From positions 1 through 22,456 of the forward strand of contig CABIKM010000041.1 of assembly GCA_902196205.1 (NCBI GenBank): DNA of 22,456 nucleotides, written 5' to 3'. How positions within the stretch are numbered: position 1 is the stretch's first letter; each line of letters opens with the position of its first letter. Under the pieces are notes generated by a model. It saw only the letters and a program-made list of their open reading frames with translations. It did no database searches and was not told the DNA's origin. Source of the DNA: Candidatus Methylomirabilis lanthanidiphila (GTDB lineage: Bacteria > Methylomirabilota > Methylomirabilia > Methylomirabilales > Methylomirabilaceae). Below are positions 3,790 through 22,456 of this stretch, one piece after another. Made by a program: the position numbers and the translations under genes.

Positions 3790-4347
3790 CTATTTAAAGG
3801 CATAGTTGATGTAGACGTGGTACCCCATGAGCAGCAACAGCGCCATGGATAATCCGACATGGGCGATGATCCATAACGGCCTGTACCAAGGCGTGTGGAT
3901 TTGGCCGATTTGGAAATTGAACAGACCGGTGAAGAAGGCCAGCAACAACGTCAGGCTGAGGATTTCGAGATATCCATAGCCCAAGACTTGGGAATGGGTG
4001 AAGAAAGCCAACGGGACCATGGCGCCGAACAGTCTGTGGCGACTCATCATAGTTGCCGCGTTGTGCTTCTCCCCTTGGGCGCGCTTCAAGGAAAAGCGCC
4101 ATTGATAAAGGATAAACGCAAACAATCCGAAGCCTGTAACGAGCTTATACGTATTGTTGTCTTGCAGTCCGGTCAACATGGTCCACTGCCGCCCGGTCGA
4201 TTGCTGAGCAATCAGGGCCGCCAACAGAAACAGACCCAGCCAGAAATATCCTTTAGCGGGCAAACCGGCTCGTAGAGCACCAAGCAGCGACGCCCTGAGG
4301 CGGTTGATGTCTTGCAGAAAGACCAGGCTTTTAACGCGCGAGGGCAA
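3790..4347 (-). CDS. Polytopic membrane protein (4-5 TM helices) with His residues inside the helices; possible b-type cytochrome or DUF4405-like subunit
   Basis: Hydrophobic segments: YFWLGLFLLAALIA, YKLVTGFGLFAFILY, HRLFGAMVPLAFFTH, YLEILSLTLLLAFFTGLF, LWIIAHVGLSMALLLLMGYH. I place the start at TTG 4345-4347, preceded by AAGGAGGGAGGG. That overlaps the upstream gene by 17 nt. The ORF-track start at 4506 would lie inside that gene. The start call is uncertain. Confidence 0.5.
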   Translation of the reverse strand: MPSRVKSLVFLQDINRLRASLLGALRAGLPAKGYFWLGLFLLAALIAQQSTGRQWTMLTGLQDNNTYKLVTGFGLFAFILYQWRFSLKRAQGEKHNAATMMSRHRLFGAMVPLAFFTHSQVLGYGYLEILSLTLLLAFFTGLFNFQIGQIHTPWYRPLWIIAHVGLSMALLLLMGYHVYINYAFK

Positions 4348-5200
4348 AGAACCCTCCCTCCTTGTTCGTTGCGGACCCCAATTGGGGCTTGTCTGCCAGC
4401 ACACTGAGCGCCGCCAAGGTCTGCGGAGCTGTGCGCTTGGCGATTTCTCCCATGAACACCTCAGAGCTCGGCAGGAAATAACCCTCGGCCGGCCAGTGTT
4501 CCCCAATGGCGGGAGGATCAGCGAATTTCCGCGCCTTTTCGAGGTACGCCTCGTAGGTATCCTTGAAGCCTTGGCGTAAGGCAGTGAGTGTCCGGAGCAA
4601 CTCGTCCATGGATATGCTACCGCTCGGGTACATCCACGTGGTCGCGCCCATCACATCATTGAGCTTCCAGTCGTGCTTGGGTGATTGTTCGTGTTTATTA
4701 TGACATTGGATGCAGCCCTCGACAACCGCTATGTCGGCGAACATGGCGACCTGCATTTGAATGTCGGGCATGAAGAAAAACTGCGGCTTGAGGGTTTGCT
4801 TGACCACCTGGAATTTTTCCAATTGCAGCCCCTCGAAGCGATTAGCCGAGTTGACGGGATAGTCCGAACCCAGAAACAGACTCAGCGGGGTCGGGTTCTT
4901 TTCCAGGCTTTTCGCCGTCTCGCGCAGGAACAACGCGGGCAAAGGGCCGGCCTCTACGTCCGCTTCGCGCCAACGTTCATCGAACTTCAACCCGGTCTGC
5001 TTACCCGCGCCGACCACTTCTTTGGTCCACATCGCGCGAACCACGTCGTTTTCCGCCTTGAGAATCTCAAACATCCGTTCTACCGGGATGGCCGCGTCGG
5101 CGGCGGTCTTCTCAGCCAATGGCGGCGGGGCACTGACAAACAGGTAGATGCTTAAGGCGCCCAACGCCAGGCAGGTGATCCAAAACTTTTGTTTAGCCAT
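4331..5200 (-). CDS. Periplasmic mono-heme c protein, Tll0287/DUF3365-like domain
   Basis: Start moved to ATG 5198-5200, giving MAKQKFWITCLALGALSIYLFVSA, a signal-like N-terminus. It overlaps the pentaheme gene stop by 8 nt. There is a single CIQCH motif followed by KLNDVMGATTWMYP, which resembles the family pattern as I recall it. Confidence 0.65.
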   Translation of the reverse strand: MAKQKFWITCLALGALSIYLFVSAPPPLAEKTAADAAIPVERMFEILKAENDVVRAMWTKEVVGAGKQTGLKFDERWREADVEAGPLPALFLRETAKSLEKNPTPLSLFLGSDYPVNSANRFEGLQLEKFQVVKQTLKPQFFFMPDIQMQVAMFADIAVVEGCIQCHNKHEQSPKHDWKLNDVMGATTWMYPSGSISMDELLRTLTALRQGFKDTYEAYLEKARKFADPPAIGEHWPAEGYFLPSSEVFMGEIAKRTAPQTLAALSVLADKPQLGSATNKEGGFFALAR

Positions 5201-5900
5201 CTTGACCTTGACCGTCCTGTTTGGCTTTATAGTGGAGATTTGTGCCGTAAGGAGAAGATCCGCCGTCAAAATAGGCGCGGATCTTCTCCGGCGGCGTTCG
5301 CTTCTCAACCGATTTCTCGATCTGCATGATGTGGTTGCCGTGAAAGTCGTGGCAGCCCAAGCAAGAGTCCCATTGCTTACGGGCGATCAGATCGGCATGG
5401 GGTACATCGATGGGATCTTTCTTCAAACGAGTGTCCTTATGGCAGTTCACGCAGTAGTCGATGGCCGTCAATGTGACCCGTCTGCCCTTGTGCTCAGCGT
5501 GGCAGGAGACGCACTGATGGGGGCGCAGCGTTTCCCGAGCTTGGCTAAAACGGGGTTCAAAGAAGCGGTAGACCGGGTGGCGGTCGTTTGGCCGCTCGTG
5601 ACAGGCCATACAGTCCGCATTACCCACGGGAAGCCGCCCGAAGAAGGCGGGCACTGCGCGCCGACCAAAGGCATGGCGAAGGTTGGCCTGAATCTGCTGG
5701 CGGAAGCTGCCTGGCGCATTTTTGTGACAGGCCGCGCAGCCAAGCTTACTGTGGCCTGTGTTCATGGGTCCTTTAGCGTGAAACCACTCCCCGATGCGAA
5801 GCACCGTAAACGCCGTGATCCCGAGTCCCACACAGAGGCCGACCAGATAGGCGCGGTTTTGCCACGTTCTCGGACCTCCAGCTTTCGCTCCCGTAGTCAC
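5193..5900 (-). CDS. Membrane-anchored pentaheme c-type cytochrome
   Basis: Five CxxCH motifs: CAACH, CMACH, CVSCH, CVNCH, CLGCH. N-terminal TM anchor AYLVGLCVGLGITAFTVLRI. GTG start. Confidence 0.8.
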   Translation of the reverse strand: MTTGAKAGGPRTWQNRAYLVGLCVGLGITAFTVLRIGEWFHAKGPMNTGHSKLGCAACHKNAPGSFRQQIQANLRHAFGRRAVPAFFGRLPVGNADCMACHERPNDRHPVYRFFEPRFSQARETLRPHQCVSCHAEHKGRRVTLTAIDYCVNCHKDTRLKKDPIDVPHADLIARKQWDSCLGCHDFHGNHIMQIEKSVEKRTPPEKIRAYFDGGSSPYGTNLHYKAKQDGQGQDG

Positions 5901-6095
5901 GACCTTAAGCTACGCGTGAGAAACTAATAGTTGATACATGAGACCTTACTCTATTTGCTGAATAACTGATCGGTGACAAAAAATAACCAAGGAACGCTTA
6001 TCCCTTGATGCTGGTCCAACACACATATTGATCCCGACAGCTACGTTCGTTCAACTAAGCCCAACACACGTCTAATGCGCTACCAATCCGGGCTG

Positions 6096-6482
6096 TCACC
6101 GACTTGACGTCCTAGTAAAGCTTCTGATATAGACCACCAGGTCCTTGATCTCGGGCTCGGAAAGCTTTAATTTATACGCGGGCATCCCCCCCTTGCTACC
6201 CTGCTTTATACTTCGAAAGAGGGCGTCATCGGACCGTGCTTGCATATAGGCCAAATCGGTCAAATCTGGCATCTTGAACATAAAAAAAAGTGCCAATGCC
6301 TGAAACCCGTTCCCCTTGCCGGTTGCACCGTGGCATCTGGCACATCTCGCCTCGAAGTTCGACTGTCCGCTTGCCGCGCCTTTGGTTTCCGCACCAAACA
6401 CGGGAGCAGCCTCCACAATGAGCAGCATCATTACCACCAATAACCACTGGCAACAAAGCCGATACAGAACACAAACGCGCAT
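6096..6482 (-). CDS. Class I monoheme cytochrome c, secreted
   Basis: Start moved to ATG 6480-6482, preceded by GGGAGGG plus 8 nt. Signal peptide MRVCVLYRLCCQWLLVVMMLLIVEAAPVFG; heme site CARCHG; distal GGMPAY. Confidence 0.8.
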   Translation of the reverse strand: MRVCVLYRLCCQWLLVVMMLLIVEAAPVFGAETKGAASGQSNFEARCARCHGATGKGNGFQALALFFMFKMPDLTDLAYMQARSDDALFRSIKQGSKGGMPAYKLKLSEPEIKDLVVYIRSFTRTSSR

Positions 6483-6580
6483 CTTAATATCCCTCCCATC
6501 AGTGTGAGTGAGTGGTGAATGATTATGAGCAATGGAATGTAACGAGAACGAAGTAAGGCAGCCTGACAATCTAGACCTAC

Positions 6581-6620
6581 AGAACAGGAGGAGGCCCGCC
6601 ATGGGGCTTCCTCCTGTTCT
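6581..6620 (-). terminator. 17-bp stem-loop between the 95-aa ORF and the cytochrome c gene
   Basis: AGAACAGGAGGAGGCCC (6581-6597) pairs with GGGCTTCCTCCTGTTCT (6604-6620); 16 Watson-Crick pairs plus one G-T position, 6-nt loop. It lies 27 nt downstream of the stop at 6647. No clear U-tract. Confidence 0.45.
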
Positions 6621-6646
6621 GAGAACGGCCGTAGTCACCAAGTCTC

Positions 6647-6934
6647 TCACTCGATCATTTGCAGGACCCGACTCTGGACATGAGAGGCTACTGTCATCAG
6701 CTCATTGCGAAGCTCCTTGCGCTCATCGAGGGCCAGAATCTTATCGAAGTTGCCGAAGTCGCCGACCTCAATCGTCACGATGCGCTCCAATTTGTTAGCG
6801 AGATGATCCCCGTAGACGTGGTACCTCGAGACCCCCGGATTCGAAAGCCAGAACTTCTTCATCTTGCCTGTCAAGAACTCATCTAACGCCTTTTCTTGTT
6901 CCGACTGAACCTCGCACATGATGTGGTAAACCAT
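6647..6934 (-). CDS. Small cytoplasmic protein of unknown function (95 aa); an alpha+beta ferredoxin-like fold is only a guess
   Basis: Clean ORF with AAAGGAGAAAGGGG upstream of the ATG and non-repetitive composition. I recognise no motif. Confidence 0.55.
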   Translation of the reverse strand: MVYHIMCEVQSEQEKALDEFLTGKMKKFWLSNPGVSRYHVYGDHLANKLERIVTIEVGDFGNFDKILALDERKELRNELMTVASHVQSRVLQMIE

Positions 6935-7134
6935 TAGTGTCCCCTTTCTCCTTTCACTTCGAGTTTAAGTTACGGCAGCTTCTTATCGTCCTCTTCGCAC
7001 GCTCAGTCCTTGAAAAGGCCCAACAGAAATGCGCAGCCCTTCAGGTATAACTGCGGTTACAAAACGATCACTTCTCCGTGGGACCCGACGGCTATTGATC
7101 ACATTATTCCGACTGGTTTCACCTCCTATTCTGC

Positions 7135-7172
7135 AACGCCTCCAGTACGCTTCACCGCGTACTGGAGGCGTT
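7135..7172 (-). terminator. Perfect 16-bp stem-loop 36 nt downstream of the nod-1 stop
   Basis: On the - strand: AACGCCTCCAGTACGC-GGTGAA-GCGTACTGGAGGCGTT. No U-tract follows (GCAGAAUAGG). Confidence 0.45.
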
Positions 7173-7207
7173 ACTGGAATGAAGTTGGACTTCTCTATGT
7201 CGGCAGA

Positions 7208-9637
7208 CTAGAAGGCCTCATCGCCGGCTGCCCAAGCTTCTCGCTCCTTCGCCTTCTCCTTATCGTAGATGGTCCATTCACCTTCCTCGACGACAGTAGC
7301 CTCACGGACCATTCGTCCTGCCCTTGACAGAATGAAATAGGCGAGCGGCAAGACGCCACCGAAGAGGAAGATCGCCCCACCGACGGTGCGCATCCACGTC
7401 AAGGTGATCCAGACATTATCCGTGACATGCGCCTGCGCTCGGGCAGCCCAGAGGCCTTGCTTGAAGACGGTCGCAACCTGGTACAGACCGACCGGGAACA
7501 GATCCAACATCATCATAAGCACCAAGCCGCTCTGCAGGGACCAGAACACCCCCTTAATCAGCTTCTCATTCCAAGCTGAGCGCTGGAACAGGTGCTGGCA
7601 CGCAAACAGCATACCGGCAATTGCGATGTTACCCTTGACGCCGAACATAGCCGCATGCGCATGGTTGCCGGTGAGGTAGGTGCCGTGCTCATAGTAGTTG
7701 ACGATGGGCAGGTTGATGAGCGAGCCGAAGACGCCCGCGCCGAAGATGTTCCAGAAGTTGACGGCCAGGATGAACGTCCAGACACCGTCCATCACGAAGC
7801 GCTGCTTGCCCTCGGCAATGTTTTCATAGGCCTTCACCCGCTCCGTCCGCATCTTCCAGGCATCCAGGGTAATCAAGAGCAACGGCAGCACCTGCATGGT
7901 GGAGAAGACGCTGCCCAGCGCGATGATCCCTGTTGGCTTGGCGATCCAGTAGAAGTTGTGGGAGATCCCGATCAGGGCGGTGACCAGGAACATCATGACG
8001 GCGAGGAAGATAACCCGCTCGGCCATGGCTCGGTTGACCAGACCCATCTGCACCAGCATGTAGCCCACGATACAGGTGGTGAAGACCTCGAAGGTCACCT
8101 CAACCCACATATGGATGTTCATCCACCGCCAGTAGTCCGCGATGGCGAAGTTCTGCGACGGGGTCATGAACATCCCGAAGAACAGGAACAGCACCATGAT
8201 GCCGCTGCCGTAGAACAGCCAAGCCGGCACCGACCAGAGGTTCTGGCTCGTGATCCACGGCTTCACGGCGCGGAAGATGATGAAGACCCACAGACAGAAC
8301 GAGGCCAGCATGAGGATATGCCAGAAGCGGCCGAGCTCCAGGAACTCCCAACCCTGGCTCCCGAACCAGTAGGCCATGTCGTCGCTGAAGTACCCGGTGT
8401 GGCCCAGATAGATGCCAAACAGCGCGCCGGCGCCCACGATCAGACACAACGTAAAGAGCAGGTTGATCAGGAAGCGCTGACCGTTGGGCACCTTGGAGAT
8501 CCTGGGCAGGAAGAAGAGGGTGTAGCCGACCCAGGCCATGAAGAACCAGTAGATCTGGACGATGGTATGCCAGCCTCTGGTAACGGTGAAGGGAATGGTG
8601 AATCCCAATACTGTGGTCGCGAGGGCGCTACCCGGTCCCCCACCGACGAAATCCTCTGCGCTCAGGATACCTGCCAGGACCTGCACCAGGAACAGGATCA
8701 CGGCAAACGCAAAGAACTTGTAGGTGGCACGCTGGGTCGGTCGCACATAGGCATCGCCCTTGTTTTCGAGGTCAACCGTGGTGAGCGACCAATCCCGCCC
8801 GTTGAACGGCTCGCCTGGCAGGGTTTTCATTTCACCGTACACATACAGGACCAGCATGGTGCCGCAAAACAGGACGAAGATCGAGATGAAGCTCCAGAGA
8901 TAGGTCTCGAACGTCGGAGTGTTACCGACCAACGGATCAGGCGGCCAGTTGTGGGTATAAGTATAGTCAAAACCCGGCCGATTTGCCCCCGAGACCCAGC
9001 CACCCCAGAAGAAATATCCTGCCAACGCCTTGAGGTCTTCAGGGTCGCTGATATGATTCTGGATTCGTCCCTTCATAAACGCTTCTTCATAGGTAGGATC
9101 CGTAAACGTCCGCGTGTAATGCGTGATTAACTCCTGGTACGCAAAGGCCTGCGCCGGATTGATTCGAATCAGGTTAGCCGCTTCGTCGTACCCGTTCTCG
9201 CGGATCTCTCGTCGTACCCTCACCGAGATCATGTCACGGTCGGCCTGAGTAACCGGACGATCTTTCGCGATCTCATTTTCGTAGAACTTGGTCATCGATA
9301 CATACGTATGGTGTAGGGCTTCTGCGGTGTAATCCGGCCCGCGTTCTCCTCCGTCGCCCCAGAACGAGCCATACGTCATCAGACCCTTCAGGTGGAATAC
9401 CTGCTTGCCACGCTGGATTTGCCACTCGGGAATCACCGTTTCTCCGGTAGATGACAATACATAATTAGTCAGTGGTGGAGCTGATGTATAGGTCCAGACA
9501 CCAAGCGCAACCAATCCGATAACACTAATACCGGTGACGATCGCAGCATGAAGCCACCAATATTTCTTTACCAACAACATTTGACCAAATGTTTTATGAC
9601 TCTTCGTGACCAATCCGCCCGAATGTGGACTCATCAT
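7208..9637 (-). CDS. nod: Quinol-NOR-like heme-copper oxidase with altered FeB and quinol sites; putative nitric oxide dismutase, copy 1 (809 aa)
   Basis: Start set at ATG 9635-9637 (CCGGAGGTACA-ATGATG). N-terminal TM helix, then a ~200-aa periplasmic domain without CxxCH, then the HCO core. Motifs: GWHTIVQIYWF, IHMWVEVTFEVF, GISHNFYWIAKP (His-Asn instead of His-His), STMQVLP, GNHAHAAMFG. Confidence 0.9.
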   Translation of the reverse strand: MMSPHSGGLVTKSHKTFGQMLLVKKYWWLHAAIVTGISVIGLVALGVWTYTSAPPLTNYVLSSTGETVIPEWQIQRGKQVFHLKGLMTYGSFWGDGGERGPDYTAEALHHTYVSMTKFYENEIAKDRPVTQADRDMISVRVRREIRENGYDEAANLIRINPAQAFAYQELITHYTRTFTDPTYEEAFMKGRIQNHISDPEDLKALAGYFFWGGWVSGANRPGFDYTYTHNWPPDPLVGNTPTFETYLWSFISIFVLFCGTMLVLYVYGEMKTLPGEPFNGRDWSLTTVDLENKGDAYVRPTQRATYKFFAFAVILFLVQVLAGILSAEDFVGGGPGSALATTVLGFTIPFTVTRGWHTIVQIYWFFMAWVGYTLFFLPRISKVPNGQRFLINLLFTLCLIVGAGALFGIYLGHTGYFSDDMAYWFGSQGWEFLELGRFWHILMLASFCLWVFIIFRAVKPWITSQNLWSVPAWLFYGSGIMVLFLFFGMFMTPSQNFAIADYWRWMNIHMWVEVTFEVFTTCIVGYMLVQMGLVNRAMAERVIFLAVMMFLVTALIGISHNFYWIAKPTGIIALGSVFSTMQVLPLLLITLDAWKMRTERVKAYENIAEGKQRFVMDGVWTFILAVNFWNIFGAGVFGSLINLPIVNYYEHGTYLTGNHAHAAMFGVKGNIAIAGMLFACQHLFQRSAWNEKLIKGVFWSLQSGLVLMMMLDLFPVGLYQVATVFKQGLWAARAQAHVTDNVWITLTWMRTVGGAIFLFGGVLPLAYFILSRAGRMVREATVVEEGEWTIYDKEKAKEREAWAAGDEAF

Positions 9638-9893
9638 TGTACCTCCGGTGGCCAAACCCATGTACCGGCCGGCCACACCTTGCTCACCTACAATCAACCC
9701 ACTTCACTCTGTAGCGCCAGCGGCTGCCTATCTATCGGGGGGGCGCGCACGTCACTGTCGGACAATAGCGCACGAAATCGACTACCTAAGCTTGACCGGG
9801 CAAGCAGTAGTGTGTCGATTGGTTGGCATTTGATCCATGGGATCGCGGTCATATTCAACTCCAAAGGAAAGTCTGGAAAGTTCATATACCTTT

Positions 9894-9922
9894 AACATAC
9901 GAGCTTCATCGGTACCTGCCAA
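9894..9922 (-). promoter_or_regulatory. Candidate sigma70-type promoter for nod-1 (TTGGCA-N17-TATGTT)
   Basis: The -35 hexamer is the reverse complement of 9917-9922 and the -10 hexamer of 9894-9899. The -35 starts exactly 35 nt downstream of the start of the conserved palindrome, the same spacing as upstream of nod-2. This is a pattern match only. Confidence 0.25.
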
Positions 9923-9944
9923 TCGCTTAACTCACCTAATTTGC

Positions 9945-9957
9945 GATGCAAATGCAC
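9945..9957 (-). promoter_or_regulatory. Conserved operator-like motif GTGCATTTGCATC upstream of nod-1
   Basis: Same 13-mer, with one central A/T difference, as 13164-13176; closely similar to 13238-13250 upstream of nod-2. Confidence 0.4.
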
Positions 9958-10363
9958 TAGGATTGACTACGGCGATCGTTTATCTGGGGCGGTGTAGCGC
10001 GGGAAAGGCAACTCGATCTGAGGCCTGGCCGAGCAGTTGCGGATGGCGGCTTACAATATGAGGGGTACCAAAAGGAATACCACACCAGACGGCAGTAGCT
10101 GCCGAGGGGCGACCCGCCAACAGATTCGGAGCCGCCTGCGGCTAGATCTTCAATACCTAACGGCGAGGAGGGAGCCTTGACGCGAGGAACTCGGTCCAAC
10201 GAAGAGAGGGGCCCTCATTTTTTGGGCCTCCCGTCTTTTAGGAACCACCGTGGTTTTTGAGTCTTAGTCAAACAGGCCCAAAATTCGACTCTGAACATTT
10301 GATGCAAACGCCGGAAATAAGGAGGTCAATACAAGGCGCGGACCGATCCCTTTAATTCGAAAT

Positions 10364-10405
10364 AAAAAAACACCCCCGGCACAACCGATACGTTGTGCGG
10401 GGGTG
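10364..10405 (-). terminator. Rho-independent terminator of nod-2
   Basis: On the - strand: CACCCCCGCACAAC-GTATCG-GTTGTGCCGGGGGTG (one bulged G) followed by TTTTTTTATT. It lies 42 nt after the stop at 10447. Confidence 0.8.
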
Positions 10406-10446
10406 TAGAGTCAGAACCGACGTACCTACCGAAGCAGGTAACGAGA

Positions 10447-12888
10447 CTAGAACGCCTCGTCAGAAGCGGCCCAAGCTTCCCGCTCCTTCGCCTTCTCTTT
10501 GTCGTAGATCGTCCACTCGCCCTCTTCAACCACGGCGGCCTCGCGGACCATCCGTCCAGCCCTGGACAGGATGAACCAGCACAGAGGCAGAACACCACCG
10601 AAGAGGAAGACCGCGCCGCCGATCGACCGCAGCCAGGTCAGCGTATGCCAAACCTCGTTCGTGACGAACGACTGCTGTCGGCCGTACCAGAAACCATACT
10701 GGAAGATGTGTGCCAGCTGGTACAGACCAACCGGGAACATATCCATGAGCATCATCATGACGATGCCGACCTGCAGGGACCAGAACACGCCCTTGATCAG
10801 CTTCTCATTCCAAGCTGAGCGCTGGAACAGGTGCTGGCACGCAAACAGCATACCGGCAATCGCGATGTTACCCTTAACGCCGAACATGGCACCATGGGCA
10901 TGGTTGTTCGTGAGGTAGGTGCCGTGCTCGTAGTAGTTGACGATCGGCAGGTTGATGAGCGAGCCCATCACGCCTGCGCCGAAGATGTTCCAGAAGTTAA
11001 CGGCCAGGATGAACGTCCAGACGCCGTCCATCACGAAGCGCTGCTTGCCCTCAGCGAGGTGCTCGTGGGCCTTGGTCCGCTCCGTCCGCATCTTCCAGGC
11101 ATCCAGGGTGATCAAGAGCAACGGCAGCACCTGCATGGTGGAGAAGACGCTGCCCAGCGCGATGATCCCTGTCGGCTTGGCGATCCAGTAGAAGTTATGG
11201 GAGATGCCGATCAAGGCGGTGACCAGGAACATCATGACGGCGAGGAAGATAACCCGCTCGGCCATGGCCCGGTTAACCAGACCCATCTGGACCAGCATGT
11301 ACCCGACGATACAGGTCGTGAAGACCTCGAAGGTGACCTCAACCCACATATGGATGTTCATCCACCGCCAGTAGTCGGAGATGGCGAAGTTCTGCGACGG
11401 GGTCATGAACATGCCGAAGAACAGGAACAGCACCATGATGCCGCTGCCGTAGAACAGCCAGGCCGGCACCGACCAGAGGTTCTGGCTGGTGATCCAGGGC
11501 CGAACGGCGCGGAAGATGATGTAGACCCACAGACAGAACGAGGCCAGCATGAGGATATGCCAGAACCGGCCGAGCTCCAGGAACTCCCAACCCTGGCTGC
11601 CGAACCAGTAGGCCATATCGTCGGTCAGCAGGCCCGTGTGGCCCATATAGATGCCGAACAGGGCGCCGGCGCCGACGAGGACACATAGGGCAAAGAGCAG
11701 GTTGATCAGGAACCGCTGCCCGTTAGGCACCTTCGAGATCCTGGGCAAGAAGAAGAGGGTGTAGCCGACCCAGGCCATGAAGAACCAGTAGATCTGGACG
11801 ATGGCATGATAGCTTCGTACGACGCTGAAGGGGATCACGATCCCCAATGCGCCCAGGATCGATTCACCAGGTCCGCCACCGACGAAATCTTCTGCGCCCA
11901 GGATACCGGCCAGTACCTGCACCAGGAACAGGATCACAGCAAACGCAAAGAACTTGTAGGTAGCCCGCTGAGTCGGTCGCACGTAGGCATCGCCCTTGTT
12001 TTCAAGGTCGACCGTAGTAAGCGACCAATCGCGCCCGTTGAACGGCTCGCCGGGCAAAGACTTCATTTCACCGTAGACGTACAGGACCAGCATGGTACCC
12101 GCAAACAGGACGAGGATTGACAGGAAGCTCCAGATATACGTGGCGTACGTCGGGAGGTTACCGGCATCAGGATCGTACGGCCAGTTATGGGTGTAGCTGT
12201 AGATCTCGCCCGGTCGATTTGCGCCGGCTACCCAGCCGCCCCAGAAGAAGTAGCCCGCCAACCCCTTGATGTCGTCCGGATTGCTGATGTAGCTCGCGAT
12301 CCTACCCTTCTGGAACGCCTCTTCATAGGTAGGATCAGTGAACATCTTAGTGTAATGGTCGATCAACTCGTGATAGGCAAACACCTGCGCGTCGTTAAGG
12401 CGGATCACGCCGGCCGCCGCGTCATACCCATTCTGATGGATCTCTCGCTTGACCTTACCCGCGATCCCGTCCTTCTCATCTTGGGTGGCGGGGCGTCCCT
12501 GCGTTTTCTCGATCTGCAACTCATAATACTTGCCCATGGAGACGAAGGTGCGGTGCAGGGCCTCGGCGGTGAAATCCGGGCCGCGCTCTGCGCCATCACC
12601 CCAGAAGGAGCCGTACAACATCAGGCCCTTCAGATGGAACACCTGCTTGCCCCGGTTCATCGAATACTCGGGGATGACGACCTCTCCGGAGGTCGCCGAC
12701 ACGAAATTCACCAGAGGAGGAACGCCAGAATAGGTCCAGACGCCAAGAGCAATCAATCCGATGGTGCTAATCGCAGTAACGATCAAAGCATGAAGCCACC
12801 AATATTTCTTGATCAACAGGGCCTGGGCAAACGTCCTCTCCTGCTTGCCCTTACTTACGGTTCCGCTTCCGCTGGGATTCGGACTCAT
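10447..12888 (-). CDS. nod: Quinol-NOR-like heme-copper oxidase with altered FeB and quinol sites; putative nitric oxide dismutase, copy 2 (813 aa)
   Basis: Start set at ATG 12886-12888 (GGGAGGTAACA-ATG). Same motif set as copy 1, including GISHNFYWIAKP and NNHAHGAMFG. Long stretches are identical to copy 1. Confidence 0.9.
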   Translation of the reverse strand: MSPNPSGSGTVSKGKQERTFAQALLIKKYWWLHALIVTAISTIGLIALGVWTYSGVPPLVNFVSATSGEVVIPEYSMNRGKQVFHLKGLMLYGSFWGDGAERGPDFTAEALHRTFVSMGKYYELQIEKTQGRPATQDEKDGIAGKVKREIHQNGYDAAAGVIRLNDAQVFAYHELIDHYTKMFTDPTYEEAFQKGRIASYISNPDDIKGLAGYFFWGGWVAGANRPGEIYSYTHNWPYDPDAGNLPTYATYIWSFLSILVLFAGTMLVLYVYGEMKSLPGEPFNGRDWSLTTVDLENKGDAYVRPTQRATYKFFAFAVILFLVQVLAGILGAEDFVGGGPGESILGALGIVIPFSVVRSYHAIVQIYWFFMAWVGYTLFFLPRISKVPNGQRFLINLLFALCVLVGAGALFGIYMGHTGLLTDDMAYWFGSQGWEFLELGRFWHILMLASFCLWVYIIFRAVRPWITSQNLWSVPAWLFYGSGIMVLFLFFGMFMTPSQNFAISDYWRWMNIHMWVEVTFEVFTTCIVGYMLVQMGLVNRAMAERVIFLAVMMFLVTALIGISHNFYWIAKPTGIIALGSVFSTMQVLPLLLITLDAWKMRTERTKAHEHLAEGKQRFVMDGVWTFILAVNFWNIFGAGVMGSLINLPIVNYYEHGTYLTNNHAHGAMFGVKGNIAIAGMLFACQHLFQRSAWNEKLIKGVFWSLQVGIVMMMLMDMFPVGLYQLAHIFQYGFWYGRQQSFVTNEVWHTLTWLRSIGGAVFLFGGVLPLCWFILSRAGRMVREAAVVEEGEWTIYDKEKAKEREAWAASDEAF

Positions 12889-13101: not shown

Positions 13102-13250
13102 CCTTGACGACTATACTGCGGTCCCCCGGACACCTTGTAAATCCTACGAACGAATCAATTCACGATGCATATGCACCATGGTATACTTCTACTACCCCCG
13201 ACGGGACTCGTAAATCCTGCGATTGACTCAATATGGTAATGCATATGCAC
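13102..13250 (-). repeat. Tandem ~74-bp direct duplication upstream of nod-2; each unit starts with the GTGCATATGCAT palindrome and carries AGGATTTAC(A/G)
   Basis: Unit 1 runs 13250->13177 and unit 2 runs 13176->13102 on the - strand. The first 12 nt are identical between units, as is a 9-nt AGGATTTAC block 35-36 nt downstream. The remainder has diverged. Confidence 0.6.
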
Positions 13251-13253
13251 TAG

Positions 13254-13445
13254 TCACGAACTCCCAGACCAGTATCGCGCATTAATCAAGGGTATGGCGT
13301 ATAAAACGAGGTTTATTCCGTTGGGCAGCAGGCCGCTGATTTGCTTGTCGGCCCGCGCTGTGGCGCTCACGAATGCTGTACTCCCTGGAACGAGATTATG
13401 ACTCACGAAGATGCTATTGATGGAATCTTGATAGATCGAGCCCAT
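13254..13445 (-). CDS. Possible 63-aa ORF coupled to the regulator through a TAATG stop/start overlap
   Basis: ATG 13443-13445 shares one nt with the regulator TAA (13445-13447). I see no motif and no independent support. Confidence 0.25.
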   Translation of the reverse strand: MGSIYQDSINSIFVSHNLVPGSTAFVSATARADKQISGLLPNGINLVLYAIPLINARYWSGSS

Positions 13446-14320
13446 TACGCTACCTTGGGGGGTTCTGTCGTCACACTCGGCGTCTGTCCGGTCTCTGTTC
13501 GAGTCGCAGGCTCCCGCCGCGCCATCTCGTTCACGTAGGCTACGGCCTCCAATCGTGAGTGAACCTTAAGCTTGCTGAAGATATTCTGAATGTGGTTTCT
13601 CACGGTGGTCTTACTGATAAAAAGCTGTTCAGCGATAGCTGCGGTCGTCGCACCAGTCCGCATCAGGGTAACGATCTGCAGTTCCCGCCGAGTGAGCTCA
13701 CCAACGGGAGAGACATTCTTCTCACTCATCGTGAGTTGCGTCTGAGCCAGTTGTTGCCGAACAAGCACCTCAAGTTGGTGTGCTGCTGTGACATCACGGA
13801 AAAGATGGACGACCGTCGGAGGCTGGTTGTCTTCGCTGGGAAGGGCCACACAGCTTACATCGATCCACAGCGGTTTGCCCGTCCTCGTCCGCGTAGCCAT
13901 CTCAAAATGCTGAATCAGGTCTCCACGGCTCAAAGTCATCTTGAGTGGACAGGGCCACTGACAGAGTTGATTGCCGTTGCTGTCGCGGCCATTGAAAAAC
14001 TCGCGGCACTGTTGTCCGACGACCTGCTGCGCAGACGCTTCCAGGATCTTTTCGGCAGCAGGATTGCAAAACAGGATTTCCCCGGTCGGCGCACTGACAA
14101 ATACACCATCGGCGGTCTCCGCGAAAAGTCTAAAAGCGGCTTCCCGTGGCTCCATAGATTGTACGTCCCCGGATTCGCCTCGCGGACTCTCTCTATTAAC
14201 CGCCGGTCGATCCTCACCCCTACGGCGAGACTTTGCCTCGCCGCTGGAACCATCGTTAGGTCGCCGGTCCGGCCGATGGATTCGTCCCGAATGTTTCGAT
14301 CCATTGCCTGGATGTACCAT
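13445..14320 (-). CDS. PAS-domain LuxR/GerE-type (HTH) transcriptional regulator with a Cys triad in the PAS domain
   Basis: PAS-like block FRLFAETADGVFVSAPTGEILFCNPAAEKILE. C-terminal LuxR HTH LTRRELQIVTLMRTGATTAAIAEQLFISKTTVRNHIQNIFSKLKV. Start is uncertain: ATG 14320 is chosen, ATG 14155 is also possible, and the ORF-track TTG 14434 would overlap the divergent promoter candidate. Confidence 0.75.
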   Translation of the reverse strand: MVHPGNGSKHSGRIHRPDRRPNDGSSGEAKSRRRGEDRPAVNRESPRGESGDVQSMEPREAAFRLFAETADGVFVSAPTGEILFCNPAAEKILEASAQQVVGQQCREFFNGRDSNGNQLCQWPCPLKMTLSRGDLIQHFEMATRTRTGKPLWIDVSCVALPSEDNQPPTVVHLFRDVTAAHQLEVLVRQQLAQTQLTMSEKNVSPVGELTRRELQIVTLMRTGATTAAIAEQLFISKTTVRNHIQNIFSKLKVHSRLEAVAYVNEMARREPATRTETGQTPSVTTEPPKVA

Positions 14321-14395
14321 GGTCTTACTATAACGAGTGTCGATGGAGCCTGTCAAGCTGAAAAGAGGTGTACACCCGCAGGCTGAAGAAAACCC

Positions 14396-14425
14396 TTGAC
14401 AGCGGGCTGCGGGCTGTGCAATAGT
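14396..14425 (+). promoter_or_regulatory. Candidate sigma70-type promoter for the porin gene (TTGACA-N18-AATAGT)
   Basis: TTGACA at 14396-14401 and AATAGT at 14420-14425, about 180 nt upstream of ATG 14605. Pattern match only. Confidence 0.35.
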
Positions 14426-14604
14426 CACGCCCAACCTACGATCTATGTCCTACTGCACGTCCCCCAAAGAGGTTGGGGAACCCGCGTACACCGCGAGGAT
14501 CGTCTCATCGGGGCGGAGGCTTTTGGGCGCCCCGCATCAGCAAAGCGCTCTGAATTCGAGAGCACGGTGGTCAACCTAAAGAAAAGAGCAGAGGGAGGAG
14601 GATC

Positions 14605-19305: not shown

Positions 19306-20073
19306 TTATGCCGTTTTCTTCTTCCGTCTGACGTAGAGCACGGCGCCTATGGCGACGCCTGCGATAGCGGTTACCAGAATGCCCGGATTACTCATCATGG
19401 AGGAACTACCGCTACTGGATCGGGGCGCCTTCAGACCAACCGTAAAGGGGAAGCTGAACGTCGAATCGTGAGCGTGATACACATCTTCCTCAGCCGAACT
19501 CGCATGTTTCTCGCTCACCGCTACGACGCCCTCGTGGCCATGCGCGGCGTTGCCGCCACCCCCGGCGTGTGATTCAACCCGCTCCTCGACCTCCAGGACA
19601 GCCTTATATTTCCCCGCCTTCGCAAAATCGGTCTCCGCTTTGACGACACCGGAGGGATAAACCTGTTGCGGGATGTAAAGGACCGTCCCGGAGTCGCTCC
19701 GCTCAGAGACCTCCACTACCCGGACCGCCACCGGGATCTTGCGCAGCGCATCGCTCATAAGATCAAAAGTCAGTGTCGCCTTGCCCGTTTTCGGGATGTC
19801 TCGACAGTACGACCTGAACTCCTCCTTCATAGCATCCAGGTACCGCCTGAGATCGGCATCTTTAAGCTCTTTGAGCACCTCAAGTTGGGTGGCTCCCGTC
19901 CCGGTGGCCGCATGCTGATAAGCGCTGAAGTGGATGAAATACTGCCCCTTTTCTATTGAGCAGAGATCGTTGTCCGTGATCCCGCCCATGCCACCCCCGC
20001 CATGCGCCCATGCCTGAGACACCCAGACCAACCCCATCAGAACAGCACATGCAGCCATTGCCCGATACTTCAT
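19306..20073 (-). CDS. Secreted, C-terminally membrane-anchored His/Gly-rich protein; candidate copper-handling accessory of pMMO (PmoD-like architecture, unproven)
   Basis: Start moved to ATG 20071-20073, giving MKYRAMAACAVLMGLVWVSQAWA|HGGGGMGG. His clusters HAGGGGNAAHGHEG and YHAHD. C-terminal TM helix ILVTAIAGVAIGAVLYV followed by RRKKK. Confidence 0.6.
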   Translation of the reverse strand: MKYRAMAACAVLMGLVWVSQAWAHGGGGMGGITDNDLCSIEKGQYFIHFSAYQHAATGTGATQLEVLKELKDADLRRYLDAMKEEFRSYCRDIPKTGKATLTFDLMSDALRKIPVAVRVVEVSERSDSGTVLYIPQQVYPSGVVKAETDFAKAGKYKAVLEVEERVESHAGGGGNAAHGHEGVVAVSEKHASSAEEDVYHAHDSTFSFPFTVGLKAPRSSSGSSSMMSNPGILVTAIAGVAIGAVLYVRRKKKTA

Positions 20074-20231
20074 TGCCCTACCTGCTACCTTCCTGAGCGT
20101 CCCATCTACGCCTTTGAGTCTCCACCTTACCCTGCACCGCAGAGCTAACCCGGCGGGCAGGGGTCCCACCCCTGGACATGAACGATAGAGCCTCCAGGGA
20201 TGGGACCTTCACGCACCCGCACACCCTTAAC

Positions 20232-20332: not shown

Positions 20333-21604
20333 CTATTTGTACTGAGTCGTCGGTCGCCACTTGCCTCCGCCGGACAGCGCGGTGGCACCACCCTCAAAGG
20401 ACGGAATCACGGGGCCGCCCACCTCTACAATCTGCCGATTCTTGTCGGCGTCAAAGAACTCGAGCAAACCGCCGTACCGGCTGTCCGAGTCATAGATCAA
20501 CTCGGCCAACCGCTGGTACTCCCATTCCGCATCGGTAGCATCTATTGACATCGTGACGGTCTGGCCGGGGGCGATGGGACCGGCGGGCTCGACCTTGATT
20601 TTCAGCCGCGAGTCGGGGAACAGCGCCGGATCACGGAACTGCAGATTGGCCGTGATGAATCCCCCCAGGTGCTGCGGCCTATTGGAGCCGTTGGTCACCT
20701 CAATCACCATCCCGAGAGATCGCCCAGGCACCGTATAGACGGCAGTGACAGGTCGGGCCTTCACGGTAGCATGGGCGTACGGCGTAAAGTCTGTCGTTGG
20801 TCGGAGTTCAGGCGTATCCATCCTACCGGTCTGAAGCGGAATCGTAATCGGGTAGGCGCCGTTGGTAGTCACGTAGCCGATGGCCACAATAAGAACCGTC
20901 GCGATCATGAGGACCAGCCCCACCGTTCGATCACCGGAGCTGACAAGCTCCTCCTCAGGCACGACCCCCACCAGGAAAATTCGGCGCGTAAACGGCCGCA
21001 CGACCCAATATCCCAGCCAGAATACCCCAATGACGGTCCACAGCAGCCACCAGCCGATGATCCGGCCCTGGCCATGGTTCTCCATGTTGATCGTCTGGCC
21101 GTCGATGGTGGTAACATTGTTTTCAAAGTTACTCCAATCACCGTCAACCGTCACAAACTCACCGCCACCAACCAGGGGGCCTCCACCCTCGATATTGACC
21201 ATCGGGTGAACATGATAGGTCCCGGTGACCCGCCCCATAATATTCATTCGATAATCATAGTCTCCGCCAAGTTGAGTGCTGGTGGCGTTGATCACGGGCA
21301 TGCCATTCATCCATGCCTCTTTCTTCAGCATCGATGGCCCCGGTACAGAGTAGTGGAGAAAGATCGACTCGGGGGTATTGACGGCCCGCGGCCATTCACT
21401 GAACGTATGAAACTTGCCTGTGAGATCCATCGTCTCACCGGGCTTCACTCGGGCCTTTGACCACTTGGTATCGTAGAACGTTATCGTACGCATCCGGAGA
21501 AACGGCTCCTGCGATCGTTCGCCATGGGCCCATGCCGTTGTTCCCGCGGACACGGCGATCACTCCAAGTAGGATCGCCGACAACGCTGCTCGTCCTATCC
21601 TCAT
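20333..21604 (-). CDS. pmoB: Particulate methane monooxygenase subunit B (423 aa precursor)
   Basis: Start moved to ATG 21602-21604 (AGGAGGATAACA-ATG). Signal peptide ...TTAWA|HGERSQEPFLRMRT. The YHVHPM histidine pair is present, and there are two TM helices mid-protein (WWLLWTVIGVFWLGYWV, GLVLMIATVLIVAIGYV). Confidence 0.9.
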   Translation of the reverse strand: MRIGRAALSAILLGVIAVSAGTTAWAHGERSQEPFLRMRTITFYDTKWSKARVKPGETMDLTGKFHTFSEWPRAVNTPESIFLHYSVPGPSMLKKEAWMNGMPVINATSTQLGGDYDYRMNIMGRVTGTYHVHPMVNIEGGGPLVGGGEFVTVDGDWSNFENNVTTIDGQTINMENHGQGRIIGWWLLWTVIGVFWLGYWVVRPFTRRIFLVGVVPEEELVSSGDRTVGLVLMIATVLIVAIGYVTTNGAYPITIPLQTGRMDTPELRPTTDFTPYAHATVKARPVTAVYTVPGRSLGMVIEVTNGSNRPQHLGGFITANLQFRDPALFPDSRLKIKVEPAGPIAPGQTVTMSIDATDAEWEYQRLAELIYDSDSRYGGLLEFFDADKNRQIVEVGGPVIPSFEGGATALSGGGKWRPTTQYK

Positions 21605-21724
21605 TGTTATCCTCCTGCCTCGCTTATGGATAAGGGTCGACTCATTCGTACCGCAGTAGGTGGTGGGGCCTTCGTCCATTGATGGTTCATCCGGAAAATC
21701 CACCACAGCCCGCGTCGACGACAG

Positions 21725-22456
21725 CTACGTCCGCGACAGCCATACCGGCTTGCTGATCCACTTTCCCATAAACATCCACCAGACATACACGAGCCCGCTG
21801 ATGAACCCGGCGAAGAATGAGGAGACCGGCGTGACGTCTCGTCCGAAGGTTCGCAGCGTCCCTCGCTCCACGATCCTGATGTACTCGGGCGTCGCGGAGC
21901 GCACATACTCCATCCCCATCAGATCGGCGATCGACATGAGCGGCCCGCTTGGGTGCTTGACGGCCAGGTGGAACGGCGCCAGCCAAGTCCAGTTTGCGGG
22001 ATAAAACAACAGCGACCACCCCATGCCGCCGAACAGCGCCGTAAACATGTAGCTTCCCGTCATCATCAACATGACGTCCAGGAAGATCGCGCTGGGGATC
22101 ATCAGACCAGGGGTGGTAAAATTGACCGGGAACCAAGCCCAATAGTAGAAGTTGAAGACACGGTTCATCCATTGACCGAAGTGAAGCGTCATAATACAAA
22201 AAGTCGCACCGATCGGCAGACGCATCTTTTCCCACATAAAATATTGCGTCGCCGCAGGGAAGGTAATCAGCAGAATCGGTGTCAACGTGACCCACCAGCG
22301 CCGATCCTTCCAGTCCAGCCAGAAGTCCCAGTCGCCGACAGTCAGCATCTGGTGAATATGATAGCCGGCCACCGTACCGGTGAATGCAGCGACGATGATA
22401 ATGATATCAAACTTTCGCTCCAGGCTTGCAGCTTGCTGTTGTGACAAGAGCGCCAT
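21725..22456 (-). CDS. pmoA: Particulate methane monooxygenase subunit A (243 aa; the ATG sits exactly at the window edge)
   Basis: GYHIHQMLTVGDWDFWLDWKDRRWW, FPAATQYFMWEKMRLP and TPEYIRIVERGTLRTFGRDV match PmoA/AmoA signature blocks. The length is within 4 aa of Methylococcus PmoA as I remember it. The upstream sequence cannot be inspected. Confidence 0.9.
   Translation of the reverse strand: MALLSQQQAASLERKFDIIIIVAAFTGTVAGYHIHQMLTVGDWDFWLDWKDRRWWVTLTPILLITFPAATQYFMWEKMRLPIGATFCIMTLHFGQWMNRVFNFYYWAWFPVNFTTPGLMIPSAIFLDVMLMMTGSYMFTALFGGMGWSLLFYPANWTWLAPFHLAVKHPSGPLMSIADLMGMEYVRSATPEYIRIVERGTLRTFGRDVTPVSSFFAGFISGLVYVWWMFMGKWISKPVWLSRT

Follow-up and report, generated by a model that had tools for sequence, protein, structure and literature searches.

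The family of putative nitric oxide (NO) dismutases (NODs) was defined from two proteins of Candidatus Methylomirabilis oxyfera, DAMO_2434 and DAMO_2437, which are among the most abundant transcripts and proteins of this bacterium (Ettwig et al. 2012, PMC3413370). On the basis of a His to Asn and a Glu to Gln exchange, a missing quinol site and an impaired proton channel, the same study put them forward as possible NO dismutases, a suggestion it called speculation pending purification, and the His to Asn exchange at the third metal ligand is treated in the literature, that study included, as a diagnostic feature of NODs. If true, NO dismutation would be among the very few light-independent biological routes to O2 and would provide a denitrification shortcut bypassing the greenhouse gas N2O, and NOD, its only bacterial candidate enzyme, has been uncharacterised for about 15 years. 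The locus analysed here lies in a stretch of 22,456 nucleotides (nt) of the methane-oxidising bacterium Candidatus Methylomirabilis lanthanidiphila (assembly GCA_902196205.1, contig CABIKM010000041.1, positions 1 to 22,456; hereafter the window) and contains two tandem genes, NOD1 and NOD2, coding for the putative NODs of this species that were published as mela_02433 and mela_02434 (Versantvoort et al. 2018, PMC6094997).

Both genes are encoded on the minus strand. NOD1 (7208..9637; ATG at 9637, stop codon ending at 7208) codes for 809 amino acids and NOD2 (10447..12888; ATG at 12888, stop codon ending at 10447) for 813, their stop codons are 3239 bp apart, and a GGAGGT Shine-Dalgarno sequence is located 4-5 nt 5' of each ATG. 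An initial annotation, made from the letters of the sequence, had described two same-strand paralogues of these lengths, spacing and start codons, and the open reading frames (ORFs) and GGAGGT sites bear this out; each peptide motif it quoted is found in the two translations, and the DAMO_2434/DAMO_2437 tags and residue numbers it gave agree with those of Ettwig et al. 2012 (PMC3413370). The two proteins share 82% identity. By exact-sequence look-up NOD1 corresponds to VUZ86039.1 and NOD2 to VUZ86040.1, both of Ca. M. lanthanidiphila and from a 22.7-kb contig, the latter being also identical to APP93283.1, which carries the database name 'putative nitric oxide dismutase'; the pair does not differ from mela_02433 and mela_02434, for which 95-96% identity to DAMO_2434 and DAMO_2437 has been reported (PMC6094997).

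The closest described counterparts in M. oxyfera (Ettwig et al. 2010, 2012) are DAMO_2434 (CBE69496), the NOD1 orthologue with 96% identity, and DAMO_2437 (CBE69502), the NOD2 orthologue, which shares a 90% cluster with NOD2. The M. oxyfera locus has the same tandem order, all of the signature substitutions described below, and the same flanking genes, coding for FtsH, a porin, a PAS-LuxR regulator, cytochromes and NAD synthase, and synteny between the window and the chromosome of M. oxyfera extends over the entire region. No match was obtained in the window with Rfam or in a tRNA scan. The locus is real and biologically important, but it is already known, and no new candidate emerges from the window; the annotation is confirmed, and what is added are some 20 clade-diagnostic residues, gene conversion in the catalytic core, a candidate operator with its regulator, and a survey of nod loci in which no redox partner is conserved.

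Fold, active site and clade of the NOD proteins

Both NODs begin with an N-terminal transmembrane helix, followed by a haem-free cytochrome-c-like periplasmic domain (PF22085 NorB_cytochrome_c-like, residues ~60-235) and a haem-copper-oxidase core (PF00115 COX1, ~304-760), and no CxxCH motif occurs in either sequence. NCBIfam gave no usable match, the single weak cbb3 hit being far under the cut-off. In phmmer searches of the PDB the top match is the quinol-dependent NO reductase (qNOR) of Geobacillus stearothermophilus, 3AYF (E = 1.7e-129), followed by the qNORs of Alcaligenes xylosoxidans and Neisseria meningitidis and, far weaker, the NorB subunits of cytochrome c-dependent NO reductases (cNORs; 4XYD, 3O0R). 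An AlphaFold2 model of NOD1, computed from a 58-sequence alignment for the protein only, without cofactors, has a mean pLDDT (predicted local distance difference test) of 83.9 and a pTM (predicted template modelling score) of 0.86, and its best structural match is again 3AYF (TM 0.85/0.91), with other qNORs next. The model comprises a helix at residues 24-52, the periplasmic domain and 13 long helices; its pLDDT is lowest (63-75) near residues 551-600 and 631-660, which hold Asn561 and Gln582 and His659, respectively. The qNOR architecture without CxxCH proposed in the initial annotation is recovered by Pfam and by the structural matches, and NOD1 and NOD2 are single-subunit membrane enzymes derived from a quinol-dependent NO reductase, whose fold they keep.

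The qNORs of G. stearothermophilus (3AYF/3AYG), N. meningitidis and A. xylosoxidans have the same fold and domain order as the NODs and share with them the haem b/b3 ligands, two FeB histidines, the equivalents of Glu512 and Glu516 and the haem-free cytochrome-c-like domain, yet the identity in structural alignment is just 29-32%. The differences comprise His560Asn, Glu581Gln, His328Glu, Glu332Gly, Asp746Gly, Gly513Val and about 15 further clade-diagnostic positions, and the NODs form a separate clade. In the cNOR NorBC of Pseudomonas aeruginosa (3O0R) the NorB core is homologous to NOD (E = 2e-26, TM-score 0.85 normalised to the target); the NODs, unlike this enzyme, have no separate NorC subunit carrying a CxxCH-bound haem c, their cytochrome-c-like domain is fused and haem-free, and their metal site is altered.

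For residue mapping the NODs were aligned to the rebuilt 3AYF sequence with 126 full-length homologues, and separately with cluster representatives, after it had been verified that His328, Glu332, His508, Glu512, His559, His560, Glu581, His651, His653 and Asp746 of 3AYF fall on the expected residues. The haem-ligand histidines are retained, with His355 of 3AYF corresponding to His357 in NOD1 and His361 in NOD2, and His651 and His653 to His659 and His661 in NOD1 and His663 and His665 in NOD2. At the non-haem metal site the first FeB histidine (His508; His509 in NOD1, His513 in NOD2), Glu512 (Glu513 and Glu517) and the second FeB histidine (His559; His560 and His564) are likewise in place. The haem ligands, the two metal-site histidines and both Glu513 and Glu517 are therefore kept in NOD1, where the H509-x3-E513-V514-x2-E517 segment identified in the alignment is encoded at 8087..8113 (minus strand), and His357, His509, His560, His659 and His661 are invariant in the 126 homologues. 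Val514 of this segment replaces Gly513 of qNOR, as it does in 97% of NODs.

The third FeB histidine, His560 of 3AYF, is replaced by Asn in both proteins (Asn561 in NOD1, Asn565 in NOD2), so that the His559-His560 pair of qNOR becomes His560-Asn561 in NOD1 (codons 7955..7960, minus strand; 11194-11199 in NOD2). Located 21 residues further in NOD1, Gln582 (codon 7892..7894, minus strand) takes the place of the catalytic/proton-path residue Glu581, as does Gln586 in NOD2 (11131-11133). The quinol site is also dismantled: Glu occupies the position of His328 (Glu328 in NOD1, Glu333 in NOD2) and Gly that of Glu332 in both proteins, the NOD1 segment E328-D-F-V-G332 being encoded at 8642..8656 (minus strand; 11878-11892 in NOD2), while the third quinol ligand, Asp746, is replaced by Gly754 in NOD1 (7376-7378, minus strand) and Gly758 in NOD2 (10615-10617). 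At the position of Phe336 in 3AYF neither His nor Phe is present in the NODs, which have Gly, Ala or Ser there, varying with the alignment used. Compared with a canonical qNOR, the NODs thus retain the fold and cofactor scaffold and lack both the quinol site and the combination of a three-His FeB site with Glu581. The initial annotation had read a His-Asn pair in helix 7, a Gln for Glu581, intact haem ligands, first FeB histidine and associated Glu, and no His...Glu quinol pair; the alignment to 3AYF upholds each of these, with neither a His-His pair nor an intact His/Glu quinol site in either protein, and adds the substitution at Asp746.

Among the 126 full-length top homologues (60-96% identity), Gln is found at position 581 in all 126, Asn at 560 in 125 and Gly at 746 in 122. 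Eighteen cluster representatives and three solved structures formed a canonical qNOR set (n=21), in which His560 and Glu581 are present throughout and Asp746 in 20, the remaining protein having Asn; the NOD signature was seen in no canonical qNOR of this set. When 1.84 billion cluster representatives were searched, two full-length proteins with the N/Q/G signature were retrieved (52% and 44% identity), whereas the full-length representatives with at most 36% identity all have His560 and Glu581 and, save one with Asn, Asp746. Strictly diagnostic for NODs in a column scan are four positions, I363F, H560N, E581Q and D746G, and less strict thresholds raise the number to about 20. Some 250 columns do not vary at all in the 58-sequence NOD alignment. 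A neighbour-joining tree with 21 canonical qNORs, a simple distance tree rather than a maximum likelihood one, was computed from Kimura distances over 733 columns. All of its 200 bootstraps recover the NOD-signature proteins as monophyletic, which agrees with the earlier assignment of the pair to a NOD clade outside the canonical qNORs. DAMO_2434 groups with NOD1, and DAMO_2437 with NOD2, in every one of the 200 bootstraps, and the four proteins from Methylomirabilis are together monophyletic, so that the duplication is older than the split of the two species.

Proposed reaction and competing explanations

The residues that bind quinol have been lost and the proton-delivering Glu has been replaced by Gln, which argues against NO reduction, and we infer, with moderate confidence, that NOD1 and NOD2 most likely catalyse the redox-neutral reaction 2NO -> N2 + O2 at a remodelled haem b3/non-haem-metal centre. 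Two NO molecules would bind at this centre and be rearranged to N2 and O2, while the two-electron, two-proton reduction of 2NO to N2O and H2O would be disfavoured by the absence of a recognisable electron route and an impaired proton route. Terminal oxidases and the particulate methane monooxygenase, the latter encoded at a distance of 7 kb, would consume the O2 produced. The two nod genes would be transcribed separately from regions sharing an upstream motif to which the neighbouring PAS-LuxR protein probably binds. The proteins were proposed as NO dismutase candidates in the initial annotation; they carry every sequence feature of the published putative NODs and are identical to them, and dismutation itself remains inferential. 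Literature on M. oxyfera records very little N2O production. Neither M. oxyfera nor M. lanthanidiphila has an identified N2O reductase in its genome, and each encodes three bona fide NO reductases, qNOR, sNOR and gNOR, away from the nod locus (PMC6094997).

The flanking ORFs of 84 nod loci, from Methylomirabilota, Acidobacteriota, Myxococcota, Planctomycetota, Alpha- and Gammaproteobacteria and others, were clustered. Across these loci no redox-partner gene is conserved beside nod, nor is there a conserved adjacent norC-like gene. The lack of a conserved electron-donor gene in this family-wide survey fits a donor-independent reaction, without proving it.

Several observations weigh against dismutation. 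Both low-spin haem b ligands, for which a purely redox-neutral enzyme would have no need, are kept, as are Glu513 and Glu517 near the metal site; many nod carriers are not hydrocarbon oxidisers, and one related contig (locus L008) has nod beside a nosZ-like gene. No characterised enzyme is known to form an O-O bond from two NO at a haem/non-haem site. O2 is also formed from NO in organisms without nod (Nitrosopumilus maritimus, P. aeruginosa), so nod is not required for this chemistry in general. No NOD has been purified or assayed according to papers of 2012 (PMC3413370), 2018 (PMC6094997), 2024 and June 2026, those from 2018 onwards agreeing with the statement of the initial annotation that the activity had not been shown with purified protein, and a 2025 bioRxiv preprint on deep-sea dark oxygen is without NOD biochemistry. 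The enzymological problem is already widely recognised, and the present analysis makes it no more testable.

The retention of both haem b axial histidines and of the Glu513/Glu517 pair also favours a different explanation, that the NODs are still NO reductases (2NO + 2e- + 2H+ -> N2O + H2O) which receive electrons by a non-canonical route. A periplasmic c-type cytochrome might, for instance, dock on the haem-free cytochrome-c-like domain and supply the haem b that is still present, and the altered metal site would tune affinity and leave the chemistry unchanged. Genes for a monohaem and a pentahaem cytochrome c do follow NOD1 on the same strand in tandem-nod Methylomirabilis, and L008 resembles a denitrification island with nod in place of nor. 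This cytochrome cluster is, however, absent from the single-nod locus L009, whose NOD is 88% identical, and from every locus outside Methylomirabilis, and a nosZ-like neighbour occurs in 1 of the 84 loci only. The little N2O in M. oxyfera, which has no identified N2O reductase and possesses separate qNOR, sNOR and gNOR enzymes (PMC6094997), also speaks against continued reduction. The loss of Glu581 and of one metal ligand is moreover invariant across the clade, which points to a changed reaction and not just a changed donor, and a reductase function is accordingly judged unlikely.

Somewhat less probable still is that the enzymes carry out another NO transformation, such as dismutation to N2O and O2 (4NO -> 2N2O + O2) as proposed for ammonia-oxidising archaea, in which case N2 would come from a separate step. 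A pathway giving N2O and O2 is documented physiologically in N. maritimus, the adjacency of nod and a nosZ-like gene in L008 would fit it, and sequence data cannot distinguish the products of a redox-neutral reaction. The archaeal pathway, however, runs without a nod homologue, M. oxyfera is described in the literature as forming N2 directly without N2O accumulation, and an N2O reductase to complete the conversion has been identified in neither Methylomirabilis genome (PMC6094997). That the NODs are NO- or O2-binding sensors, scavengers or protective proteins, i.e. degenerate qNORs with a non-catalytic or detoxifying role, would accord with the frequent loss of catalytic residues in pseudo-enzymes and with the recurrence of NO-responsive genes (NnrS, sigma-54 activators, LuxR regulators) near nod in other taxa, but is very improbable given the strict conservation of all cofactor ligands except His560, the ~250 invariant columns, the very high expression in M. 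oxyfera (Ettwig et al. 2012, PMC3413370) and the active homogenisation of the catalytic core between the paralogues.

Gene conversion and transcriptional organisation

This homogenisation is evident when the four Methylomirabilis nod genes are aligned by codon and the variable nucleotide sites are sorted by grouping. Outside the core the sites group by orthologue, as in codons 61-240 (78 vs 5), whereas grouping by genome prevails in codons 421-600 (16 vs 3), a pattern which points to gene conversion homogenising the catalytic core of NOD1 and NOD2. The affected region (NOD1 codons ~421-600) is located at 7838..8375 (minus strand) in NOD1 and ~11077-11614 in NOD2. Conversion is more complete in M. 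oxyfera than in the window, with one mismatch in 565 aligned nt of the core between its two copies (locus L001, 6708-9140 and 10001-12427). A tentative reading, of fairly low probability, is that the tandem pair goes beyond simple redundancy and represents a co-evolving two-isoform system with a shared core, diverging ends, a shared operator and separate transcription. Recurrent conversion would then keep the core, with all metal-site residues, identical within each genome, while the periplasmic domain and C-terminus diverge by orthologue. Because the solved qNORs are dimers, a NOD1-NOD2 heterodimer is conceivable and the two might associate in this way; alternatively, they might be isoforms for different conditions under a dedicated NO- or O2-sensing regulator.

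An intrinsic terminator, consisting of a GC-rich hairpin (-26.6 kcal/mol) followed by T7, is located 3' of NOD2 at 10359..10405 (minus strand), and its hairpin is conserved in M. oxyfera. The presence of a terminator between the genes suggests that NOD1 and NOD2 are probably transcribed as separate units. A further hairpin (7132-7174, minus strand; ~-38 kcal/mol, 18-bp stem) lies 35-75 nt past the NOD1 stop codon; it has no T-run and may serve either to stabilise the mRNA or as a terminator of atypical form.

Upstream of both genes, and nowhere else in the window, occurs the palindrome-containing motif TGCAT(A/T)TGCATCG. One copy, TGCATTTGCATCG (9944..9956, minus strand), is located 307-319 nt upstream of the NOD1 ATG, and two copies, TGCATATGCATCG (13163-13175) and TGCATATGCATTA (13237-13249), precede NOD2 (13163..13249, minus strand). 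Over the Methylomirabilis loci its distance upstream of the gene is ~310-340 nt for the single NOD1 site and 275-360 nt for the two NOD2 sites. The motif is kept at equivalent positions in three other Methylomirabilis genomes, namely in L001 (6350-6362, 6420-6432 and 9665-9677), L007 (4485-4497 and 7658-7670) and L010 (5993-6005, 6063-6075 and 9249-9261), although the surrounding intergenic DNA is only 48-68% identical. The single-nod relative L009 lacks the TGCATWTGCATCG motif. FNR-type (TTGA-N6-TCAA) and sigma-54-type promoter patterns were found upstream of neither nod gene in either species, and a simple sigma-70 promoter scan gave results at chance level.

Directly upstream of NOD2 lies a gene coding for a regulator with a PAS and a LuxR-type (GerE) domain (longest ORF 13445..14434, minus strand), the real start of which is probably internal, giving a protein of ~295 amino acids. 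This gene is located upstream of nod in all Methylomirabilis-type loci, and the TGCAT(A/T)TGCA palindrome is a candidate operator, probably read by the adjacent PAS-LuxR protein. A LuxR-family regulator (GerE helix-turn-helix) is encoded directly upstream of nod in 13 of the 70 surveyed loci with enough upstream sequence, in several phyla, including L007 (3446-4333), L009 (517-1404), L010 (4883-5779) and L019 (9099-9764), as well as L053, L057, L058, L061, L063, L067, L072 and L073. It is the most widespread nod neighbour and the only one recurring beyond a single lineage, with the PAS domain present in Methylomirabilis.

Neighbouring genes in the window and across nod loci

The genes pmoB (20333-21706, minus strand) and pmoA (21725-22456, minus strand, running off the window end), coding for particulate methane monooxygenase, are located 7.4 kb from NOD2, which places a putative O2 producer near the proposed O2 consumer, as in M. 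oxyfera. A 287-amino acid ORF downstream of pmoB (19306-20169, minus strand) has no Pfam match.

Downstream of NOD1 the minus strand codes for a 95-amino acid protein without a Pfam match (6647-6934), a monohaem cytochrome c (within 6096-6650), a pentahaem cytochrome c with five CxxCH motifs (5193-5900), a Tll0287-like protein with one CxxCH (within 4331-5308) and a small membrane protein (within 3790-4506). This cluster (3790..6934) was confined to tandem-nod Methylomirabilis genomes and is hence regarded as context, and not as a proven part of the system. The first two genes differ in order between the species, the 95-amino acid gene coming first in the window (6096-6934) and the cytochrome c gene first in M. 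oxyfera (L001 12682-13584). The cluster was considered as a conserved NOD partner and rejected, being absent from L009 and all loci outside Methylomirabilis. L009 itself, a groundwater contig from ENA, has a single nod gene with a PAS-LuxR gene upstream and NAD synthase directly downstream; it contains neither a second nod copy nor the cytochrome cluster.

In L008 (1747-14237; a contig of JGI 3300037479, NOD 77% identical) nod lies in a denitrification-like island, in which genes for the alpha, beta and gamma subunits of a type II DMSO-reductase-family enzyme and a glyoxalase are followed by nod, a 74-amino acid ORF, a 451-amino acid multihaem cytochrome c and a NosZ-like protein. The last of these matches TIGR04244 with 448 bits, under the 625-bit cut-off. 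This adjacency occurs in L008 alone among the 84 loci, and a common linkage of nosZ to nod was rejected.

A conserved, lineage-specific nod cassette is found in L042-L088, mostly metagenome-assembled genomes of marine and groundwater Gammaproteobacteria. It comprises genes for a 7Fe-type ferredoxin (DUF3470), two divergent MORN-repeat proteins and a LuxR regulator, then nod and, directly downstream, a gene for a protein of ~211 amino acids; cytochrome b561 and NnrS genes recur a few kb from nod in such loci. The contig of L010 (DATMXF010000229.1), labelled 'Patescibacteria group bacterium', carries the entire Methylomirabilis nod locus at ~95% protein identity and is for this reason probably mis-binned, and L040, labelled Peptococcaceae, may likewise be mis-binned.

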